Shown here: one piece after another, positions 2,836 through 40,134 of the stretch | How the letters are laid out: each line of letters begins with the position of its first letter | How positions within the stretch are numbered: position 1 is the stretch's first letter | Assembly (NCBI GenBank): GCA_910589265.1 | Contig: CAJUTQ010000074.1 | Location: 14,353-78,352, forward strand | From: an uncultured Lachnospiraceae bacterium | GTDB lineage: Bacteria > Bacillota > Clostridia > Lachnospirales > Lachnospiraceae | Direction of reading: 5' to 3' | DNA length: 64,000 nucleotides | Made by a program: the position numbers and the translations under genes | The notes under the pieces: generated by a model | What the model saw: only the letters and a program-made list of their open reading frames with translations | The model's database searches: none | What the model was told of the DNA's origin: nothing

Positions 2836-4255
2836 ACTTTTTTAATTCCTCCATAATGTTCATTGCATTTAGTAAAAAAGCAAATACTTTATTCTCTTGA
2901 TCCATATGAAGGGGAAGCATAGAAAGGAAGAGGGATGCCTCATAAAGACGAACCTGTATTGGATCATATCCATACTTCTTTAAATATTCCCCAAAAACTG
3001 TCCCATATGCAGTATTGTCTGTGTCAATGGAAAGACAGATCTTCATATCCCCTTCAATTGTCATTTGAAACAATCCGCTGTTAAAAAAATCATAGGATCC
3101 CCATATGGAATGGGAAAGCTTGGCCAGATCATAATATGGATGGGTATACAATTCCTCTTCTTTCAAAGCTCCTTTTGGATCAATGAGCTTTAGCAATGAG
3201 GCATCCTTATTATACAAAATGTTAGAAAAGCAAAGATCTCCATGTCCAACAACAAGCTTTTCTTCCATGTCTCCTCTCCCAGATAAATATCCATATATCC
3301 TTTTATACTCTTTAACAATTCCTGAAATTCCATCATAGTCTGTCCCTATACGAATCAAGTTGTCAAAGGTTTTATATCCTTCTTTTTGTTTAAGCATTTC
3401 TATCCTCTGAGCTACCTTTTCTATATAGAGCTTTTCTCCTATTTTTTCATACTCCTCCCTCGTTACTTTTTTCTCTTTTCTAGTCCTTAAAAAATAAAAA
3501 AGTTTATCTAAAATGTCTCTAAATTCCTCCATAGATACAGCTCCGTGAACAAAACGGATGGCAATGTCTGTCATGTGATAACGCTCCATTGTATAGGATG
3601 CGCCATCCGCCCATTCCTCATATCCAAAAGGCATTACAAACCAATACTTCATCTCATCAGGAAGCAAATAGTAAAATTCATATTCTGCCCTGATTTTTTC
3701 TTTATTTTCCGAAGACTTTTTTACTGTAAATTCATCTCCTGTTAATGCATTAAAATACCGGGCGTCAAAACCTCCTGTTAAAAACGTTCGAAAATGTCCA
3801 ATTTCAGAAAAATCAATAAATGCGTCTGATTCTAGCATAATAGGGGATGTTCTACTTCTCTCCTGACTTTTAAAATAAGAGGGAATATCTGGATACATCC
3901 ACATACTCGGTTTTCCATTACAGGCCACAGCATATGTTTCTTGTATATAGCTTGCTTTTTTCAATAATATTCGAAATGCTTCCCTATCTCCAATTCCAAA
4001 ATTAGAGGGGAGAACTAGAAGGGAGGTCTTTGCCTCTGTCTTTTCTAATTCTTCCTTGAGTAAAAACAGCTCTTTGTCTGATTCTACCTGGCGCACTTCT
4101 TTTACAGAGCCACAGAATAATATCTCTTCCTTCATTCTCTCCTTCAATGTCTTTCTTTTAAAAATTGTATTTCCAAAAGATTTTCCTCCTGTAATCTGGC
4201 AAATCTCCTGGTTTGGTTTTTTGCGGTCGTCATATATTACGAAAACTTTTTTCAT
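2828..4255 (-). CDS. Kinase-like protein (aminoglycoside/choline-kinase fold) with an unassigned ~190-aa N-terminal domain
   Basis: 475-aa ORF. The C-terminal half carries VVGHGDLCFSNILY and LKLIDPKG, matching the HxDxxxxN...D catalytic pattern of APH/ChoK-type small-molecule kinases. Confidence 0.7.
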   Translation of the reverse strand: MKKVFVIYDDRKKPNQEICQITGGKSFGNTIFKRKTLKERMKEEILFCGSVKEVRQVESDKELFLLKEELEKTEAKTSLLVLPSNFGIGDREAFRILLKKASYIQETYAVACNGKPSMWMYPDIPSYFKSQERSRTSPIMLESDAFIDFSEIGHFRTFLTGGFDARYFNALTGDEFTVKKSSENKEKIRAEYEFYYLLPDEMKYWFVMPFGYEEWADGASYTMERYHMTDIAIRFVHGAVSMEEFRDILDKLFYFLRTRKEKKVTREEYEKIGEKLYIEKVAQRIEMLKQKEGYKTFDNLIRIGTDYDGISGIVKEYKRIYGYLSGRGDMEEKLVVGHGDLCFSNILYNKDASLLKLIDPKGALKEEELYTHPYYDLAKLSHSIWGSYDFFNSGLFQMTIEGDMKICLSIDTDNTAYGTVFGEYLKKYGYDPIQVRLYEASLFLSMLPLHMDQENKVFAFLLNAMNIMEELKKYV

Positions 4256-5040
4256 CGTTTCATAACACCTATGCCTTTCCCTTTTTTACATTCTTTCCAT
4301 CTATAGCCCCCATACATCATCACCATAGAACCCCCTATCAAGGCAGTTCCAGCTAATGTATATATTTTTAGCAAAATACTACCTTCCATTAAAAAAATAG
4401 CCCCAATATAATTGGAAAATTCCTTCATCCCAAAAGGTTTTCCAATGAGAAATGAAAGTAGAAGCAAGGCAAGTATTTCCATTCCCCACCCTGCCATAGA
4501 TGCAATTAAAATAAGAGAATATCTTCCGCTTATAAGCTCTTTCACATAATCAAACCAGTCTTTCCCTTTGTCCAGCCATTGCAAAGCCTTCATGGAAGGG
4601 GGAGAGCTTTTATGAAGAATAAAGTAACGGTTTAAATATAAATAAGTAGGTAAAAAAATTCGGTATATAAATACAAGAAATAAGAGAACAACAAGGAGAA
4701 GGCCTGTAACTCTAGTAACCTCCCTTGTAAAAAACAGCTCAAAGGGTATAAGCAATAGGAGAAGTCCCACTGTATCAAAAAATCGATCAACACCAACGCT
4801 AAAAAGACCTATCTGAAAAACCTTTGTATCCTTTGCATAACAATAAATTCGGTAGCACTCCCCCATTTTAAAAGGTATCACCAAATTAACGAACGTGGTT
4901 TTCAAATATGTCCATAATAGCCGTCGAAACGGTATTTTCTGTTCTAATAATACAAGATACATTCTTGACATCTTTGCCATGTGTACAAGAAAAAATACAC
5001 AAAGAAATGCAAAAACTCCCCATAGCCTTCTGCCTTCCAC
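4252..5040 (-). CDS. Polytopic membrane protein, flippase-like (MprF TM-region / UPF0104-like)
   Basis: 262-aa ORF, hydrophobic throughout with about 7-8 predicted TM segments. ATGA overlap with the next gene. Family call is pattern-level only. Confidence 0.5.
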   Translation of the reverse strand: MEGRRLWGVFAFLCVFFLVHMAKMSRMYLVLLEQKIPFRRLLWTYLKTTFVNLVIPFKMGECYRIYCYAKDTKVFQIGLFSVGVDRFFDTVGLLLLLIPFELFFTREVTRVTGLLLVVLLFLVFIYRIFLPTYLYLNRYFILHKSSPPSMKALQWLDKGKDWFDYVKELISGRYSLILIASMAGWGMEILALLLLSFLIGKPFGMKEFSNYIGAIFLMEGSILLKIYTLAGTALIGGSMVMMYGGYRWKECKKGKGIGVMKR

Positions 5041-5056
5041 TTACATTCCCCGCCCT

Positions 5057-5863
5057 TTACCCTGTTTGCTCACTATCTGCAATGACATCCGCCTCATAGT
5101 TTTCTACTTTTATTTGCCGATAATCCTTTAAAATAGACTGTTTATTTATATAATATCCCTTTAACATACTTAGTACAGTCATTGCCTGATGGAACATTTT
5201 TACATTAGATACTTGATCATCCTCTCTCCAAGATATGGGATAGAAACGAATGCGATGTCCATAATAATCCGAAGCTAAAATCATACAGTAATTAAACATT
5301 AAATTATCAGGAAATTTCTCATAATATTTACTTTTTAGCATTTTTGTACTGTAAAGATTCAAGCCTGAGCCTAAATCAAACACTCTTTTTCTTATAACTG
5401 CTGCAAACAAAAAATCATACAAAATGTTTCCAAAGGTACGTATTTTCGAATAGCCCTGAAGTTTGGATCCTTTCATAAATCTGGCCCCTAAAATACAATC
5501 ATACTGTCGGTACATCCCTGTTCTAAGCACTGGAAGGAAATCGTGAATTTCTCCTTGGTCGTCTCCATGAAGAACCATAACATAATCAAATTTTTCTTTT
5601 ATTGCATAGTCAAAGGCTACTTTATGGGAACCTCCCAATCCATAATTATCTTTATTGCGCAAAAGCTTGATAGATATAGAGTGGCAACGGTCAATAAATT
5701 TCTTTACTACTTCCTCTGTTTCATCTGTACTTCTGTTATTTACTACAATAACCTGATCAATATAACACATCATTTCTTCCCCTAACTGAGAAAGCACCCG
5801 TATAATTTGTTTTTCACAATTATAGGCAGGTATAAATAACAAAATTTTACTCTTCTCCTTCAT
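5057..5863 (-). CDS. GT2-family glycosyltransferase (DPM1/GtrB-like soluble domain)
   Basis: ILLFIPAYNCEKQIIRVLSQL, VIVVNNRSTDETEE and VLHGDDQ (DxD-type). Confidence 0.8.
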   Translation of the reverse strand: MKEKSKILLFIPAYNCEKQIIRVLSQLGEEMMCYIDQVIVVNNRSTDETEEVVKKFIDRCHSISIKLLRNKDNYGLGGSHKVAFDYAIKEKFDYVMVLHGDDQGEIHDFLPVLRTGMYRQYDCILGARFMKGSKLQGYSKIRTFGNILYDFLFAAVIRKRVFDLGSGLNLYSTKMLKSKYYEKFPDNLMFNYCMILASDYYGHRIRFYPISWREDDQVSNVKMFHQAMTVLSMLKGYYINKQSILKDYRQIKVENYEADVIADSEQTG

Positions 5864-6989
5864 TTTCTGCCTCCTCTGTTTTCACTTCTTGTTCCTTTTC
5901 TTCTGTAGATTCAGCAGGCAAGGCCTGAGTTGTCAAAACAATTGGAACATACTCGTTATCATACTTGTAGTCATACATGGACGGCTCTCTTCCTGTATTG
6001 ACATAATAGGAAATATTCTTTGCTGCATCCTCTCCCACCATATTTAATGCTCTTTGGTCATAATGCCATTCATCTATCATATAGGAAACGTCAAAACCTC
6101 CAAGCATAGTAGAAGCCATCATAAATCTTGGATCATTTTTGCATATTTCTGTCTGTACTTTTTGAATTTCATCACAAAAAACAGGATTGCTCCTTGATCT
6201 CCCAATTCTTATCATAAAACATTTTTCAACTCCATAGGCGATCATACTGTTAACAATAATGTCCATATTGGTTGCATACATAGCCTGACTAAATCCAAAT
6301 ATGGCGTCAGACTCTCCCTGAAGCCATACCATATATTTATGCCTTACTTCATACCCATTTTGGTTCAGCCAATCTACAGTAGATGTAAGCCTGTTTACAG
6401 CGTCTCCCATTGCCCCTGGATTTGTCCAATAAGCTGTATTGGTAGCCCCCTGAGAGCATGAGACTGCCACTACTGGTACATTAGTATGTTCATAATACTT
6501 ATTTACAAAAGCAGAAACTAAGCTCCCTCTTTTTGCTGTGCCATCGCTAATTCCTAAAGGCTTATTTTCATAAAATCCAAAAGGCTCTACAATACTGTAC
6601 AACTTTGTAGGATCCGATATAACTCGGAACTCATAACCTGCTCCTTCTGTAACTTCAGGAGCTTCTTCTGGATTGCCTCCATTTCCTGACATATTGCTCT
6701 GCCCCATAAATATAAATACATCTACAACAATATCTTGGGGAAGTTCAATTACATGGGTAGCATTTTTTAATTTTTCTTCCAATTCTGCCAAAATTTCTTC
6801 ATAAGGCCGAGTATCCTTTGGCGTTTCTTTGACTGGAGATTCAATATCTACTATATTAAAATATTCTGGTTCTTTTTGTTTCACCAAAGGATAAATAAAG
6901 TATACAGCTCCCACTAATAACATAAAAACAACAACGACTGTGACTATTCTAGTCAAAAATTTTTTCAATTTATGCTTCCTTCTTTTCAA
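5847..6989 (-). CDS. Membrane-anchored SASA/SGNH-type carbohydrate O-acetylesterase-like protein
   Basis: N-terminal KRRKHKLKK followed by one TM helix, then VFIFMGQSNMSGNG (the GQSNM block of the sialate O-acetylesterase / DUF303 family). Acidic C-terminal tail. Confidence 0.65.
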   Translation of the reverse strand: MKRRKHKLKKFLTRIVTVVVVFMLLVGAVYFIYPLVKQKEPEYFNIVDIESPVKETPKDTRPYEEILAELEEKLKNATHVIELPQDIVVDVFIFMGQSNMSGNGGNPEEAPEVTEGAGYEFRVISDPTKLYSIVEPFGFYENKPLGISDGTAKRGSLVSAFVNKYYEHTNVPVVAVSCSQGATNTAYWTNPGAMGDAVNRLTSTVDWLNQNGYEVRHKYMVWLQGESDAIFGFSQAMYATNMDIIVNSMIAYGVEKCFMIRIGRSRSNPVFCDEIQKVQTEICKNDPRFMMASTMLGGFDVSYMIDEWHYDQRALNMVGEDAAKNISYYVNTGREPSMYDYKYDNEYVPIVLTTQALPAESTEEKEQEVKTEEAENEGEE

Positions 6990-7431
6990 TAAAAACTTTT
7001 CTGCTAATAAAGTTATAAATCATAACAATTCCTGTTGCAATAATTTTTGCCCCCATTTGTGCTGGTTTCTCTGACAAAAAACTTTCCATAAGAGGAAAAT
7101 TTTTGTAAATTCCGTCTATGCAAAGCCAGATAATCCCTTCATTTATCAAAAGTCCTATAGCGCTAAGTCCTAAAAAGATAACAAATTCCACCTTCCGATC
7201 TGCCCCGTCTTTCCTTTGAAACACAAAAGCCATACTGGCCAAATAATTAAAAACAAGGGATATCATAAATCCAAGGGCGCCAGCCAGAAGATAATGTATA
7301 CCAACATAAACACAGACTGTATATACAATGAAATCAATTAGAAAGGAAACTCCGCCAACAATACCAAACTTCATAATCTGTTCCATAAGCTGCTGCTTTT
7401 TGCTTTCGTTCACTAACATTCCTCCATTCAT
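6970..7431 (-). CDS. GtrA-family small membrane protein (polyprenyl-phosphate-sugar flippase candidate)
   Basis: 153 aa with 4 TM segments and KFGIVGGVSFLIDFIVYTV, a typical GtrA-like N-terminus. Confidence 0.75.
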   Translation of the reverse strand: MNGGMLVNESKKQQLMEQIMKFGIVGGVSFLIDFIVYTVCVYVGIHYLLAGALGFMISLVFNYLASMAFVFQRKDGADRKVEFVIFLGLSAIGLLINEGIIWLCIDGIYKNFPLMESFLSEKPAQMGAKIIATGIVMIYNFISRKVFIEKKEA

Positions 7432-35620: not shown

Positions 35621-35835
35621 AATGTATCTTTAACTTTTTACTAACAGACTAGGGCATATTTTTTATAAAATAACATGTAAAATATAATCTTCATTACTTT
35701 TTATGATATTAACATATATAAATATTATAATCAACAAATTCTTATTTTTTATCCCTCTTTCCTTAATTCTATTACAAATTCTAATATAGATGGATAATGG
35801 TAGTAAAACTTAATCATAATAGTTACAGAATACCC

Positions 35836-36241
35836 CTAACATTTATAATTTAACATAGAGATTAATCCAAATGAGGCTAGTCTATCATTACTGACTGCCA
35901 TGTATACATCTCTACAGTAACCAAGCTTTGCATATCCCTTAAGATATACACTTTTCCATGCTGACCATGATAGTATACCCAGTTTAGTCAGATTCTTTAC
36001 TCTGTTCTGTGGAGCTTTCCAATGTTTCCAATTACACATTCGAATTCTATAGCAAATTTTTGAATCAAGCTTTTTGTAAAGTGTTTTCACACTTCCTATA
36101 AGGTATTTTACTCCTTGTGGTTTATCCGTTTTACTCTTAGTCATCTTCACCTTTCATCCCTGTTTCTCTTCGACCAATCAGGATATATTTCTCATTACTC
36201 TATTTGCAGACATTTCACTTTCACCAATAATGATACAGTAA
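35836..36241 (-). pseudogene. Intron B reverse transcriptase/maturase, C-terminal fragment (post-YADD region and X/maturase domain)
   Basis: It resumes right after intron A as DDF|TVSLLV then, after a frameshift, ESEMSANRVMRNIS...KVKMTKSKTDKPQGVKYL...RIRMCNWKHWKAPQNRVKNLTKLGI...KGY...AVSNDRLASFGLISMLNY. These are maturase hallmarks; an internal deletion and stops are present. Confidence 0.7.
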
Positions 36242-36274
36242 GTAGACCAGAGGCTCCTCCCCTCAAGCCTCTCA

Positions 36275-36309
36275 GAACTGTGCATGAACCTCCTCAGCTC
36301 ATACAGCTC
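36275..36309 (-). ncRNA. Group II intron domain V of intron A
   Basis: The minus strand reads GAGCTGTATGAGCTGAGGAGGTTCATGCACAGTTC. It has a 5' AGC triad and a GAGCTGT/ACAGTTC basal helix, and matches the GAGCCGUAU...ACGGUUC consensus architecture. It directly follows the RT-A stop codon. Confidence 0.7.
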
Positions 36310-37144
36310 CTATCGTTCATCTGCTGGTAGTATTCTAAATTTCCAGTATGTAAATAGGTTCCTGTCGCACTTTCCTATCTCTCCAAGCCAATGTTCCGCC
36401 TTGCGCTTCTTATACTTTCTCTGCACCCATTTCACTAGACATTCATTAATATACCTCATCCCATCCTATATTTCTGATTTATAGAAATACATGTAGTAAT
36501 GAATCCATCCCTGTATCTGTCAGTTGAAACTATTTGCTATATCGTAAAGGTCTCTGTCCAATTTTAATTGCAGTTTCCATCTTCTTATTCCTTTGCATAT
36601 AGCTTTCTTTACTTTTTCACTCATTGCTGGAAAGAAGTTTATAAAGCTCCCCCCGTATCTGTTCTTTGCATGTCTTGGACGGAATATATATCCTAGAAAA
36701 TCAAAAGAGATATTCTTATGATTTCCTCTCTAGTCATCATCTTTGCAGTACACTATCCTTATTTTTCCTAATTCAGTTTCAGACCATAACTCTAGAATCT
36801 CTGTTCAAACCTTCTTTGCAGATATTTCGCCTGTTTCTGGGAGTCGCAGTGCGCTATCCCATCATCGGCATTTCTTGCCCACGGTATCATCGGAAATTTC
36901 TTTACCATGAAATCATCAAACACATAGTACAGAAACAAGTTCGCCAATACTGGACTTATCACTTCTCCTTGCAGGGTGCCAGATGATATCCTATTCCATA
37001 TTTTGTAGAGGTTATTATTCAGTCTCCTCTCAAAATTTTCTATGAACTGTTCGTCCACAACATAGGTTCCCTTGTTCGCTTTCATTCTTTGATAAACTGC
37101 TACCACTACTTTTTTGAAATACTGTATGGCTTTGCTTCTTGCAT
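36310..37144 (-). pseudogene. Intron A reverse transcriptase, internally deleted and frameshifted
   Basis: ATG at 37144 follows GAAGGAGG: MQEAKPYSISKK, then a frameshift to VAVYQRMKANKGTYVVDEQFIENFERRLNNNLYKIWNRISSGT, then a jump to QGEVISPVLANLFLYYVFD...ARNADDGIAHC. RT domains 1-4 are missing. Later fragments read DFLGYIFRPRHAKNRYGG...QGWIHYY...WKFRILPADER*. Confidence 0.75.
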
Positions 37145-37658
37145 AAGTTCCTCCTTCTATAAAGTTGACTTATCCTTAAAGCCGGATAATTCGGGTTCTT
37201 CACTTTGTTCCTATTGCAGGAACTTCTACGCTACTACAACCCAATTTGCCCACATGGCTACATCGTTACTCTTATCTTACGGTTCTTCCGCTTGATATTA
37301 CTCCCTTAACATCAGCCTGTGGGTTCCCACGTTACGTACAGACACCTGTGTAAAGTTCATGCCGCCTTTATACCGCCCACTGTCTGGACAGTAAACAGCT
37401 TTTCCTCCAGACTTATCCAAGGATAACGACTAACCCCTAGTTCTGATGGAATCTCCACACTTTCGACATTTCCGTAAGCGGTTCATATGTTCCTTCATCT
37501 CCTTCACACTCACCCGACAGTTAATAACTGCCTTTTCCCTAACACTTGGTACCATAGCTTTTGACTACAGCACCTTAGAGTGGTTTGGAGCCTCCACTAT
37601 CATCTGTACAGCATATCCATCTTCAAATAACTATGCTACTTGTCGCCTTCGTGGCGCA

Positions 37659-38380
37659 CAGTCGTCCGAACACCTCACAAACCTATGCCCTCTGCGTGTC
37701 AGTTCCCTGTCTAGTTCATTCAGCATAGCATTACTAAGCAATGAACTTGTCGGTCCGCCTTGGGACATTCCTGTTTCTATCTTTTCGAATATCCCCCTGC
37801 TAATGACTACTTCTTTGAGATATTTATGTATCAGCGATATTGCCCTCCCGTCTACTATGGTCTTTGATAATATTTCTGGCAATTTGTTCTGGCATACCAT
37901 ATCAAAGAATTTCTCTATATCCATGCCCACAACATTCACATATCCATCATCAGCATTCTGCTGACATTGTTTTAGGGGATCATGCACACCTCTCTTTGGT
38001 CGAAAGCCAAAACTGTTTTCCGAAAACTATTCCTCATAGACTAGGGACAGCACCTGTATGATTGCCTGCTGGAATACCCTGTCAACTACTGTCGATACTC
38101 CCAGTCTTCGAAATTCGTCTTTTGTTTCTTTGGGTATCTCTACCCTGCGGGCTGGATTGGATCTGTATTTCCCATCCTTTAATTGCTGAATTAGGCTCAC
38201 TTGGTTATCTCTCAGGAACGGTAGAAACTCATCCACGTTCATCCTATCGCCACTGCTTGCTCCTTTTATTGGATTTCACTTTCTTGTATGCATTATTTAG
38301 ATTAGTCGGCTGTAAAATCTTCTCCAACAGTCTGTCCGTCTGAAAGTCTGTGATGATATGGTTGTTTAATGCGAACTCCT
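37659..38380 (-). pseudogene. Intron B reverse transcriptase, N-terminal fragment (RT domains 0-5)
   Basis: LLEKILQPTNLNNAYKKVKSNK, then a frameshift at the A-run near 38264, GASSGDRMNVDEFLPFLRDNQVSLIQQLKDGKYRSNPARRVEIPKE...LGVSTVVDRVFQQAI, a second frameshift near 38000, then FRPKRGVHDPL...GMDIEKFFD...GMSQGGPTSSLLSNAML...FVRCSDD. No intact start codon. Confidence 0.75.
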
Positions 38381-38756
38381 TTCCCAATGCCAGCCCCTAA
38401 CAGGCGTACACTTCTACATACTCTTTCGATTCCGTCGATACCTTTTGTAGATAGTCCTCAATATGTAGTTATCTATCCTTAAATCTATCATTAGTTACAG
38501 TCCTTCTACTCACATCTCCTAAAGTTCAGTCCTTCCCATCATGTTTGCAACTACGATGGTACTATGACCTCTGCTGACTTTTCGCCATTCGTTGTTACTA
38601 CAGTTTTTACTTAGTTTCCGTCTGCTGATGAGGCTTCTGTTGGTATCACACATTTCTTTCTCTCCACCTATTTAGTTTGTGTTGCAACCTCGTCCTTAAC
38701 TCTAGCCTGATGTGATTTCTGTACGTCAGACCAGAGATTTGTCAACGTTATGCGAA

Positions 38757-38784
38757 GCTTCGCATAATGTAAATTATGAACAGT
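38757..38784. repeat. 28-bp dif-like recombination site (11-bp arm, 6-bp spacer, 11-bp arm)
   Basis: GCTTCGCATAA TGTAAA TTATGAACAGT matches E. coli dif as I recall it (GGTGCGCATAA TGTATA TTATGTTAAAT) at about 21/28 positions. It matches remembered B. subtilis dif at about 20/28. Confidence 0.5.
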
Positions 38785-38871
38785 ACGTTATTATGCAAAG
38801 TTGAGTCCAAATTTTGTTGGATTTCTTACGGTATGGACTCTTTTTAACTTCGCATAATTCGGAATCACTCC

Positions 38872-39766
38872 TTACAAAGATTTGAGCCAATCAAGAAGAT
38901 CTTTATCCTTTTTCCATGCTGATAGTTTGTCAGATGAGGGACTACTATAAGCTTCCATCAATGCTTTACATTTCATTTTTTCATCTGACTGGACGTAAAT
39001 CTCGGTTGTTGAAATAGCAGAATGTCCCAGTAAATCTCTGATATAAATAAGATTGACACTGGATTAAAGCAGATGCATTGCCTTACTGTGCCGCAGCCAA
39101 TAAGGTGGAATCTCACCGGATATGTCTTTTACTCCGGCGGCCTGAGCTTGTTGAGCATATTTTTTCAAAATATATGTTACCCTGGCTCTTGTCAGTGGTT
39201 TATTTCCACGATTAGTGAACAAATGGTTACGGCTAATGCAGGCAAACACAATTCTGCCCCTTCCATATACTATTTCCTAAGTTCGCTGATATCAATACAA
39301 AGATAGGTCATTGTTGTTTCGGTAGTTGTATGTCCCAGGATTTGCAACATAACAGGAAACGGAATCTCATGTTCCATCAAACGGCTTGCAAGGCTGTGGC
39401 GAAGCGTATGGGATCCTTTCTTTTTCTATAAAACCATTCTCATGGTAGTATTTCAGATAATATCGTACCGCACGCATTGTATGATTTATGGTTGGTTTTT
39501 CATAACAGCTCAAAGATATCATGAAATCCAAAACATCTTTAAGAGACAATGTATCCAGAGAAGAACTATTTCTCTTCTTTAAAAAAGGCAAAAAACCTTT
39601 CCAGATATAAACGGAAAAACTGATTCGATTTTTTGATGATTCCGCTTTTCTCCCAATAGGAAATATATGCTTGTGCGCTGTCTTTGAATCCTTCGGGGAA
39701 GGTATATGTTCTTTTATCCATAACAAGATAAAGAGTGACATTTCCTGAACGTTGGTATTCTGCCAA
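38872..39766 (-). pseudogene. Tyrosine recombinase/integrase, multiply disrupted
   Basis: The fragments are the N-terminal SAM-like domain (39766-39367, one frameshift), LFTNRGNKPLTRARVTYILKKYA...PYWLRHSKAMHLL, an in-frame TAA at 39064-39066, then SSVNLIYIRDLLGHSAISTTEIYVQ. These carry the HxxR, GH and catalytic Y boxes. Confidence 0.75.
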
Positions 39767-39984
39767 AGCATTTATACAACGGGAATAGGCTGTACACCAT
39801 TTTTTCTGCTTGATTTTCTATGACATGGAATAATGCTCTTCTAAAAACTGTAATCCAAAGTCCATGCTAAAAGAATCCGTATTGTGTTCCTCCTTAAGTA
39901 ATTTGATAAAAATACACTTAAATCGTGATGGATTATGGAAAGTACATCAACCAAAGAATGCTTTATTCATAAGGATTTTTATCG

Positions 39985-40015
39985 CCAACTTTGCATAATG
40001 TGTAGCTTTTCATAA
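39985..40015. repeat. Terminal half-site pair of the recombinase element
   Basis: CCAACTTTGCATAA TGTGTA GCTTTTCATAA: two ...CATAA half-sites separated by 6 bp. They belong to the same motif family as 38748-38803 and 38846-38857. Confidence 0.5.
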
Positions 40016-40134
40016 CCGACACCTTCCTTCAGATTCCACCTCACGATGGGTGCCTTGGTATCGGCTGTATCCTTCCCACTATTAGGGCGGATTTAGGACT
40101 TTCACCCACTAGATACGTGCGCCACAAGGCATAC

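Follow-up and report, generated by a model that had tools for sequence, protein, structure and literature searches.

A probable relic of a recombinase-in-trio transposon inside a decayed group II intron, and what the ends of its intact relatives suggest about movement

The subject here is a 64,000-nucleotide stretch of the genome of an uncultured Lachnospiraceae bacterium (contig CAJUTQ010000074.1 of assembly GCA_910589265.1, positions 14,353 to 78,352; the whole of it is called the window, and positions are counted from its first letter) and, within it, a short segment in which broken tyrosine recombinase genes lie between clusters of a repeated motif, TTATGCRAAG. Comparison with intact relatives indicates that positions 38742-40021, read on the minus strand, are the relic of a RIT (recombinase-in-trio) transposon. 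We consider it very probable that a decayed RIT element landed in a group II intron and that the motif arrays are its ends; a way in which such elements may move is proposed below. An earlier reading of the same DNA (the original prediction) had proposed a formerly mobile recombinase cassette whose motif copies are its own recombination sites, and in this it was right, as the same arrays flank intact homologues at both ends. The element type, which it did not recognize, is that of the RIT elements (PMC3414803; PMC10214605).

The first line of evidence is the coding sequence. Three-frame translation of the minus strand gives remnants of two different tyrosine recombinases in tandem; the original prediction was correct that recombinase coding here is dead, but what it took for one gene is the remains of two, ritA and ritC. 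In the first remnant, an N-terminal region is fused directly to a box II/Tyr segment (KKKGSHTLRHS...LGH...MTYL), and the second is the C-terminal third of another recombinase (...WLRHSKAMHLL*SSVNLIYIRDLLGH...EIYVQSD...DLLDWLKSL*).

39274-39888, minus strand: ritA pseudogene, Pfam Phage_integrase at 4.1e-09, box II/Tyr region (HTLRHS...LGH...Y) kept
38872-39275, minus strand: ritC pseudogene, Pfam Phage_integrase at 4.1e-13, the C-terminal ~133 codons with one in-frame stop

The ritA pseudogene has lost its start codon and about its first 40 codons, carries an internal deletion of ~438 bp as well as frameshifts and stops, and is 70-97% identical to the RitA fragments and proteins P0001-P0010. 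An upstream stretch, FHNPSRFKCIFIK, was considered as the RitA N terminus and rejected; it is untranslated leader, the true N-terminal codons being those deleted. In the intact 3432-bp element at locus L032 (loci are numbered with an L), the ritA pseudogene maps to positions 263-731 and 1170-1322, and the ritC pseudogene, which is colinear with the C terminus of L001 RitC (...LRHSKAMHLLQSGVNL...DLLDWLKSL), to positions 2931-3432. The whole relic aligns to L032 in four colinear blocks (1-140, 263-731, 1170-1322 and 2931-3432) at 87-92% identity, separated by three deletions that removed ~2.2 kb of the 3.43-kb intact element, or 63% of the interior, among them ritB in its entirety and ritC except for its last third (about 1.6 kb).

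Used as a protein query, the first fragment found 61 relatives, which on longer contigs head three consecutive Phage_integrase genes, and a genome scan with the middle protein, RitB, found 73 loci, mostly in Lachnospiraceae. Because homologues of the first fragment occur in such trios and the relic is colinear with L032, the window element is best read as a RIT relic. Intact relatives are 3.43 kb long and encode RitA of 403 aa, RitB of 328 aa, and RitC of 337 aa; between their ends lie these three Phage_integrase genes alone, without a fourth conserved gene. The RitA open reading frame (ORF) is intact at 34 loci and, where a start is annotated, 403 aa long, and in the L006 trio (403/328/337 aa) both ritA/ritB and ritB/ritC overlap. 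At L001 to L004, where the trio is called as 239*/328/337 aa, a frameshift splits ritA (e.g. L001 5479-6720; cluster P0036, 293 members) into ORFs of 111 and 242 aa but leaves ritB and ritC whole. The frameshift in this widespread variant may be an inactivating mutation that is common, or an error of sequencing or assembly that recurs. The genome of Lachnospiraceae bacterium 3-2 holds at least five distinct loci, with L017 to L023 at 98% RitB identity, and many assemblies contain stand-alone contigs of ~3434 bp, starting ggTTATGAAAAG and ending CATAAcc, which are collapsed repeats. A megablast search of PLSDB plasmids with an intact element returned nothing, distant protein-level relatives alone being present there.

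RIT elements (recombinases in trio) were defined in the genus Cupriavidus (PMC3414803). A trio on a Cupriavidus taiwanensis plasmid encodes proteins of 420/327/336 aa with gene overlaps of 8 and 4 nt, and against it the Lachnospiraceae proteins score 30% identity for A-A (6e-60), 42% for B-B (1e-87), and 47% for C-C (3e-107), with cross pairs at about 25% (1e-9 to 1e-16). The two trios are thus orthologous position by position, and the same reciprocal pattern is found at L088 to L090. RitA is reported to have a pair of core-binding domains, and RitC an additional helix at its C terminus (PMC8138268); with this the lengths here, and lengths only, agree: the 403-aa RitA has ~200 aa ahead of its catalytic domain, and RitC has a ~30-aa tail past the Tyr. 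In sum, the intact loci share with described RIT elements (PMC3414803; Van Houdt et al. 2009/2012) an adjacent, same-strand A-B-C trio with short overlaps, subfamily-specific orthology of each gene to its Cupriavidus counterpart, a long RitA (403-420 aa), terminal inverted repeats, and several near-identical copies per genome. The window copy differs in being a fossil without ritB, in which fragments of ritA and ritC alone are left.

The second line of evidence is the array of half-sites. Exact TTATGCRAAG occurs 6 times in the 64 kb, against 0.49 +/- 0.72 expected, a count that none of 100 shuffles reached, and five of these six copies fall in the 1.27-kb segment of the relic, at 38748-39998. 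(The sixth, at 4831-4840 on the minus strand, is the sole exact TTATGCAAAG outside the relic and stands isolated, with no partner arms nearby.) One could suppose that AT-rich words have merely clustered by chance, since A and T are abundant here and near-matches turn up across the window (29 with at most one mismatch, against 13.3 expected); the excess of exact copies, and the retention of their positions and geometry at more than 70 loci, make this vanishingly unlikely, so that the original prediction was sound in treating the motif as something other than ordinary AT-rich words. It had counted seven half-sites. The cluster at the relic ends is real, but there are eight copies, that at 39933-39942 having been missed, and its coordinates were 1-3 nt too generous at three sites. 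The perfect 20-bp palindrome that it placed at 38748-38767 is there in the sequence. From the right end of the element to the left, the features are as follows.

38742-38747, minus strand: spacer s3, CGTTGA on the minus strand
38748-38767: palindrome P.P', TTATGCGAAGCTTCGCATAA, perfect over 20 bp, made of TTATGCGAAG at 38748-38757 (plus strand) and its inverted copy at 38758-38767
38768-38773: spacer s2, TTTACA in element orientation, which couples the terminal arm to the palindrome
38774-38783, plus strand: right-end outer arm a, TTATGAACAG, degenerate; in element orientation CTGTTCATAA, one change from the consensus CTTTTCATAA
38791-38800, plus strand: right-end inner arm b, TTATGCAAAG; in element orientation CTTTGCATAA
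38848-38857, minus strand: right-end inverted arm c, CTTCGCATAA; in element orientation TTATGCGAAG
39933-39942, plus strand: left-end inverted arm c, TTATGGAAAG; in element orientation CTTTCCATAA; position shared with L001, L003 and L005
39989-39998, minus strand: left-end inner direct arm b, CTTTGCATAA; in element orientation TTATGCAAAG; 7 bp from arm a
40006-40015, minus strand: left-end outer arm a, CTTTTCATAA; in element orientation TTATGAAAAG; first base pairs of the element
40016-40021, minus strand: spacer s1, TGTCGG on the minus strand; target-side 6 bp beside the RIT left end

The two ends of the relic form a 30-nt inverted repeat (38774-38803 and 39986-40015, 77% complementary). Its left-end arm a is the same 10 bp with which intact elements start, and similarity between loci ends exactly there. 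In the relatives, an intact end has three arms: a is outermost, b follows 7 bp inward in direct orientation, and c, which is inverted, lies about 45 bp deeper still. In element orientation, the left end reads TTATGAAAAG, 7 bp, TTATGCAAAG, about 45 bp, CTTTCCATAA, and the right end TTATGCAAAG, about 45 bp, CTTTGCATAA, 7 bp, CTTTTCATAA; outside one of the two ends follow 6 bp, TTATGyGAAGCTTCrCATAA, and another 6 bp. The palindrome is present outside one end of every complete relative, and its halves match within each locus though its sequence differs between loci (GTG/CAC or GCG/CGC). The position of s2 is likewise invariant; its sequence varies among copies, and its reverse complement always resembles a parA-type spacer. 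In relatives with 30-64% RitB identity, the arms themselves differ (TTATCCAAAG, TTATGAGAAG, TTATGCATAG), so that arm sequences change along with the recombinases, but the arms are still spaced 10-7-10, the third is still inverted, and both the 6-bp spacer and a 20-bp palindrome are kept, as are the inverted b...c pairs family-wide. RIT ends have been described as ~34-bp inverted repeats or as 47/51-bp imperfect palindromes (PMC10214605, PMC5737581); three-arm ends, an external palindrome, 6-bp coupling sequences, and motif-coding targets are absent from the descriptions in PMC3414803, PMC5737581, and PMC10214605. At L003, a second RIT of a different subfamily (3610-7228; genes called as 193+217/270/347 aa; left end TTATGCTGAG...ATAATGCAAAG) starts right after the palindrome of the first, and RITs can thus stack end to end.

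The arrangement of the right end also accounts for a site that first suggested something else. Positions 38757-38784 have an 11-6-11 layout, GCTTCGCATAA TGTAAA TTATGAACAGT, with the dif-like core geometry CATAA-6 bp-TTATG that the original prediction had described. From it came the proposal of a self-contained Xer-like module, that is, one recombinase with its own dif-like site for dimer resolution, on the pattern of XerS/difSL or XerH/difH, or of an integrative mobile element exploiting host Xer (IMEX). The core geometry is in favor of such a module, as are about 21 of 28 matches, counted by hand, to E. coli dif, and the two recombinase fragments do match XerC, XerD, and XerA models weakly. 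Their NCBIfam scores are far under the cut-offs, however (e.g. 69.5 versus 329.6 bits). Moreover, intact copies always encode three recombinases, not the one or two of Xer systems, and occur several times per genome; the 6-bp centre, which would be conserved in a dif site, is hypervariable and appears to derive from earlier targets; and insertions are found in parA genes and introns, not at a unique chromosomal site. RITs also carry further accessory arms, both direct and inverted, and are not connected with the resolution of chromosome dimers. IMEXs such as CTX-phi do have dif-like sites, two of which in inverted orientation can form a palindromic or hairpin structure, but they encode no recombinase and use XerCD at the host dif, whereas RITs bring three enzymes of their own and go to parA, transposase genes, and an intron. 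We therefore regard an Xer-like module of either kind as extremely unlikely. Instead, the 28-mer is made up of the right terminal arm a, a 6-bp coupling sequence that varies between copies, and the half of the palindrome next to it. The resemblance to dif, with its simple recombinases and its 6-bp centre between inverted arms of ~10-11 bp that end in CATAA/TTATG, is explained by the placing of RitA, RitB, and RitC with the Xer-like "simple" tyrosine recombinases (PMC8138268).

Where these elements insert is the third line of evidence. At most Lachnospiraceae loci, the element splits parA inside the Walker A codons, in the layout ...CAGAAAGGNGG - NGTNGG/NACNGG, then element and palindrome, then NGTNGG - CAAGAC.... 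When the element, the palindrome, and one spacer are deleted in silico, ParA ORFs with KGGVGKT or KGGTGKT are restored (AAA_31, 4.7e-58). The usual target is the Walker-A-coding stretch of parA, CAGAAAGGNGG-NGTNGG-CAAGAC, and integration is site-specific. The NACNGG spacers were considered as a flipped 4-bp core, a reading we rejected, as they are the Thr codons of KGGTGKT ParA variants. In a census of about 50 characterised ends, the palindrome lay without exception on the 3' (K-T-T) side of the target, never 5' of it. It adjoined the left and the right end of the RIT equally often (11 times each), and the 5' flank of parA was next to the left end in 16 cases and next to the right end in 13. 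Every 6-bp spacer resembles a Gly-Val/Thr-Gly codon fragment, yet spacers vary from copy to copy at a given target gene: at one parA gene (Z = CAAGACCACCACCACAAGC...), s3 is AACTGG, TGTGGG, or CGTTGG, depending on the genome. In Lachnospiraceae bacterium 3-2, the s1 (AGTCGG) and s2 (GACGGG) of L017 recur unchanged in L019 and L022.

Other RITs of the same architecture lie in other genes. On Bacteroidales/Parabacteroides contigs, the distant RITs L066-L069 (30-37% RitB identity, same ends and palindrome, other arms) sit in a DDE_Tnp_1 transposase gene, exactly at the codons for its conserved ...YRKRWEIELLFK... motif, and their removal restores a 393-aa transposase ORF (Pfam 1.3e-29). At L015, L020, L050, and L073, both flanks are 5' halves of parA or other target genes, in inverted orientation and without a palindrome, a layout that would be the expected product of recombination between two RIT copies through a large inversion or a replicon fusion.

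The window copy lies in neither kind of gene. Its surroundings on the minus strand are decayed group II introns, one nested in the other.

40016-40124, minus strand: outer group II intron, 5' part of domain I; first base at 40124, where GTATGCC is a decayed GTGCGCC
37677-38741, minus strand: outer intron continued, with the remainder of domain I, domains II-IV, and the N-terminal portion of a broken reverse transcriptase (RT) ORF (blastn, RF01998)
36230-37659, minus strand: inner group II intron, nested in the outer RT ORF (RF01999 at 37512-37612, 56.8 bits; GTGCGCC at 37659)

The location inside an intron had been part of the original prediction and is borne out by alignment. The 5' part matches the uninterrupted introns L079-L086, which start GTGCGCC...GGGTGAAAGTCC..., and in blastn comparisons, window 40130-40020 corresponds to L086 510-621 and window 38741-37677 to L086 626-1714, so that the two parts separated by the relic are contiguous in L086; the RF01998 match is at 38529-38602. 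No empty parA or intron site was present among the first 78 loci. The empty intron site comes from the eight uninterrupted introns, obtained by a pattern scan of viral_contigs, and reads ...GGAATCTGAAGGAAG-GTGGAGG-CAAATCTCTGGTCTGACG...; at the position of s1, these introns have GAAGGAAG-gTGGAGG-CAAATC. The s1 of the relic occupies the position that NGTNGG spacers have in parA insertions. Its s3, CGTTGA, looks like the parA-type CGTTGG with one change, unlike the intron's own TGGAGG, and CGTTGG is a spacer at L006, L008, L010, L015, L020, and L024. The intron sequence CTGAAGGAAGG-TGGAGG-CAAATC resembles the parA target and is thus a look-alike site, and one that has been hit repeatedly: the same spot in domain I is occupied in the window, L003, L027, L030, L040, and L043, and at least the insertions in the window, L003, and L027 are independent events, as they differ in spacers and/or orientation. 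L027 (in a bin of Odoribacter splanchnicus) and L030 (in a bin of Holdemanella biformis) are Lachnospiraceae-type RITs with 91% RitB identity at this same intron site; their presence on short contigs in Bacteroidota and Erysipelotrichaceae bins reflects either mis-binning or recent horizontal spread.

It is less obvious how a single mode of movement could place the palindrome on one side of the target, turn the body of the element either way, and deposit spacers that belong to other genes. We propose that the mobile form would join the two ends of the element through spacer', palindrome, and spacer (end-s'-palindrome-s-end). The joined form would then contain two mirror-image cores, each made of an arm, 6 bp, and a palindrome half, and either core could recombine with a target X-s-Z to give X-s-[body]-s'-palindrome-s-Z, the orientation being set by the asymmetric spacer. 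The coupling sequences would thereby carry a record of earlier parA targets. Such a model explains why the palindrome is on the Z side, why both body orientations occur about equally often, and why spacers come from other parA targets; the L017-derived spacers in L019 and L022 each sit at the end that it predicts. The imported spacers resemble the 6-bp footprints known for Tn554 and SEs (PMC10214605). In the window, a RIT landed in the intron look-alike, after which it lost three internal segments and gained stops and frameshifts, the intron decaying as well.

The model makes a prediction about the junction, namely the order arm-6-palindrome-6-arm, which is absent from single integrated copies. 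A scan of metagenome contigs for this pattern found it on three, L088, L089, and L090. L090 is 3593 bp long with a 135-nt terminal overlap, giving a period of 3458, and the spacer alone contains mismatches, two of them; the contig is a circle or else a tandem. L088 (ERZ778497 NODE-3399, 7332 bp) is an integrated direct head-to-tail dimer of identical copies with a period of 3504 and with spacer, palindrome, and spacer between them. L089 runs from ritC through the junction to ritA. The three contigs support the predicted junction but do not prove free circles. The target of L088 is a small ORF without a Pfam match (MKQKTCCFTGHR...GTGGALGF|), cut at GGALGF|D, and its spacers, ATTCGA, ATTTGA, and CTTCAA, look like codon variants of one motif, G-F-D/N.

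The occurrence of both orientations invites a different explanation, that the segment between the inverted ends is an invertible DNA switch that flips to regulate its neighbours, here a polysaccharide locus; the original prediction, too, had raised an invertible segment. The inverted end sites have identical arms, and RIT bodies do point either way with respect to target and palindrome: one parA flank, with one and the same spacer, joins the right end at L017, L021, and L023 and the left end at L044 and L051, and L004, compared with L001 and L022, shows the same flank joined to opposite ends. Independent insertions through either of the two symmetric cores explain these orientations as well, however. 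The relic itself is in a single orientation, with no sign of inversion or excision, in six assemblies of the same species (from ENA, NCBI, and JGI) that match colinearly over 6.6 kb at 99.95-100% identity; it lies in a dead intron, with its recombinases destroyed. Scans of the relic and of one intact element for promoters and terminators found nothing above shuffle expectation, and two ideas, that the b...c hairpins are terminators and that the ends carry an obvious outward promoter, were dropped for the same reason. A switch is thus highly unlikely.

The survival of both ends, all eight half-sites, and the palindrome around an interior of which 63% is gone could also be taken to mean that the window copy is a non-autonomous mini-RIT, a deletion derivative that an intact RIT elsewhere can mobilise in trans. 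Against this, the pseudo-ORF of the relic occurs on 22 contigs, and the neighbouring genes are the same at all 6 places shown, with no sign of a second insertion site; right-end arm a and spacer s3 carry point changes; three deletions together with frameshifts and stops are typical of neutral decay; and the 64-kb window contains no intact RIT. We judge a mini-RIT highly improbable. The relic is an inert, fixed, vertically inherited fossil without a function of its own.

Several points weigh against our interpretation as a whole. First, the window copy shows just two of the three genes, and its membership in the family rests on colinearity with intact relatives. Second, the contigs with the junction belong to other RIT subfamilies (31-51% identity) and could be integrated tandems. 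Third, inversion in situ between inverted end sites would explain both body orientations equally well. Fourth, s1 and s3 both vary at the same target gene, and the rule for the junction with the native spacer is not settled. Fifth, RIT transposition has been shown by no experiment (PMC10214605, Table 1). Finally, Ricker et al. 2013, who reportedly found RIT elements to be widespread across several bacterial phyla, may already describe some of these end features.

RITs can also be set beside other systems of several recombinases or repeated binding sites. Tn554, SE, and GInt elements, like RITs, use several tyrosine recombinases and insert site-specifically; as RITs would under the proposed model, they carry 6 bp of the donor flank to the new site and pass through circular intermediates. 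They differ in their gene sets (TnpA/TnpB/TnpC, IntA/Tfp/IntB/Srap, and GinA-D), which the RIT loci here do not have, in their lack of an external palindrome and of a mirror-image core pair, and in their hosts, Staphylococcus or Gammaproteobacteria. In the TnpI/IRS system of Tn4430, as in RITs, one recombinase motif occurs as an inverted core pair with adjacent direct accessory repeats. That system, unlike RITs, resolves cointegrates in a Tn3-family transposon with one recombinase, and its arrays are not at the termini.

The value of the window copy is as a pointer to a mechanism at the level of the RIT family. Target specificity of RITs is listed as not tested and no transposition has been demonstrated (PMC3414803, PMC5737581, PMC10214605); transposition has not been reproduced, the target rule is untested, and the need for three recombinases is unexplained (PMC3414803, PMC10214605). 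The comparison here yields testable hypotheses about binding arms, the core site, the predicted junction, targets, and memory in the coupling sequences. Candidate motif targets are the ParA Walker A box (in partition genes of plasmids and of integrative and conjugative elements, ICEs), the YREK "RWEIE" of DDE_Tnp_1, and the GGALGF(D) of the small ORF. It is a serious possibility, to which we give a little less than an even chance, that the arrays expose the chemistry of RIT transposition, that subfamilies home to motif-coding sequences, mostly in genes of mobile DNA, with look-alikes taken accidentally, and that spacers record past targets. Insertion into the parA of conjugative elements and into transposase genes would make RITs parasites of other mobile elements, which bears on the stability of ICEs and plasmids in gut Lachnospiraceae.

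Two further loci deserve mention. On the C. taiwanensis plasmid (L087; NZ_LT984809.1, 288519-295451), the trio adjoins IS66 accessory genes, with a group II intron ltrA ~1.5 kb downstream of it. The left flank of the trio contains a 17-bp hairpin, CAAAGTAGTTCCCATCA ctatt TGGTGGGAACTACTTTG, and TTATGTG-like motifs occur near both gene ends; at this locus, neither motifs nor hairpin could be mapped with confidence onto the scheme of arms a, b, and c and palindrome. In the window, the nested decayed introns at 35700-40124 make up a mobile-element graveyard of ~5 kb between a membrane-protein gene and a UDP-glucose/GDP-mannose dehydrogenase gene. The inner intron has an RF00029 match (domain V/VI) at 36237-36311 of 33 bits, under the 40-bit gathering score, and it interrupts the RT ORF of the outer intron, which persists in minus-strand fragments at 38387-37631 and 36150-35836.

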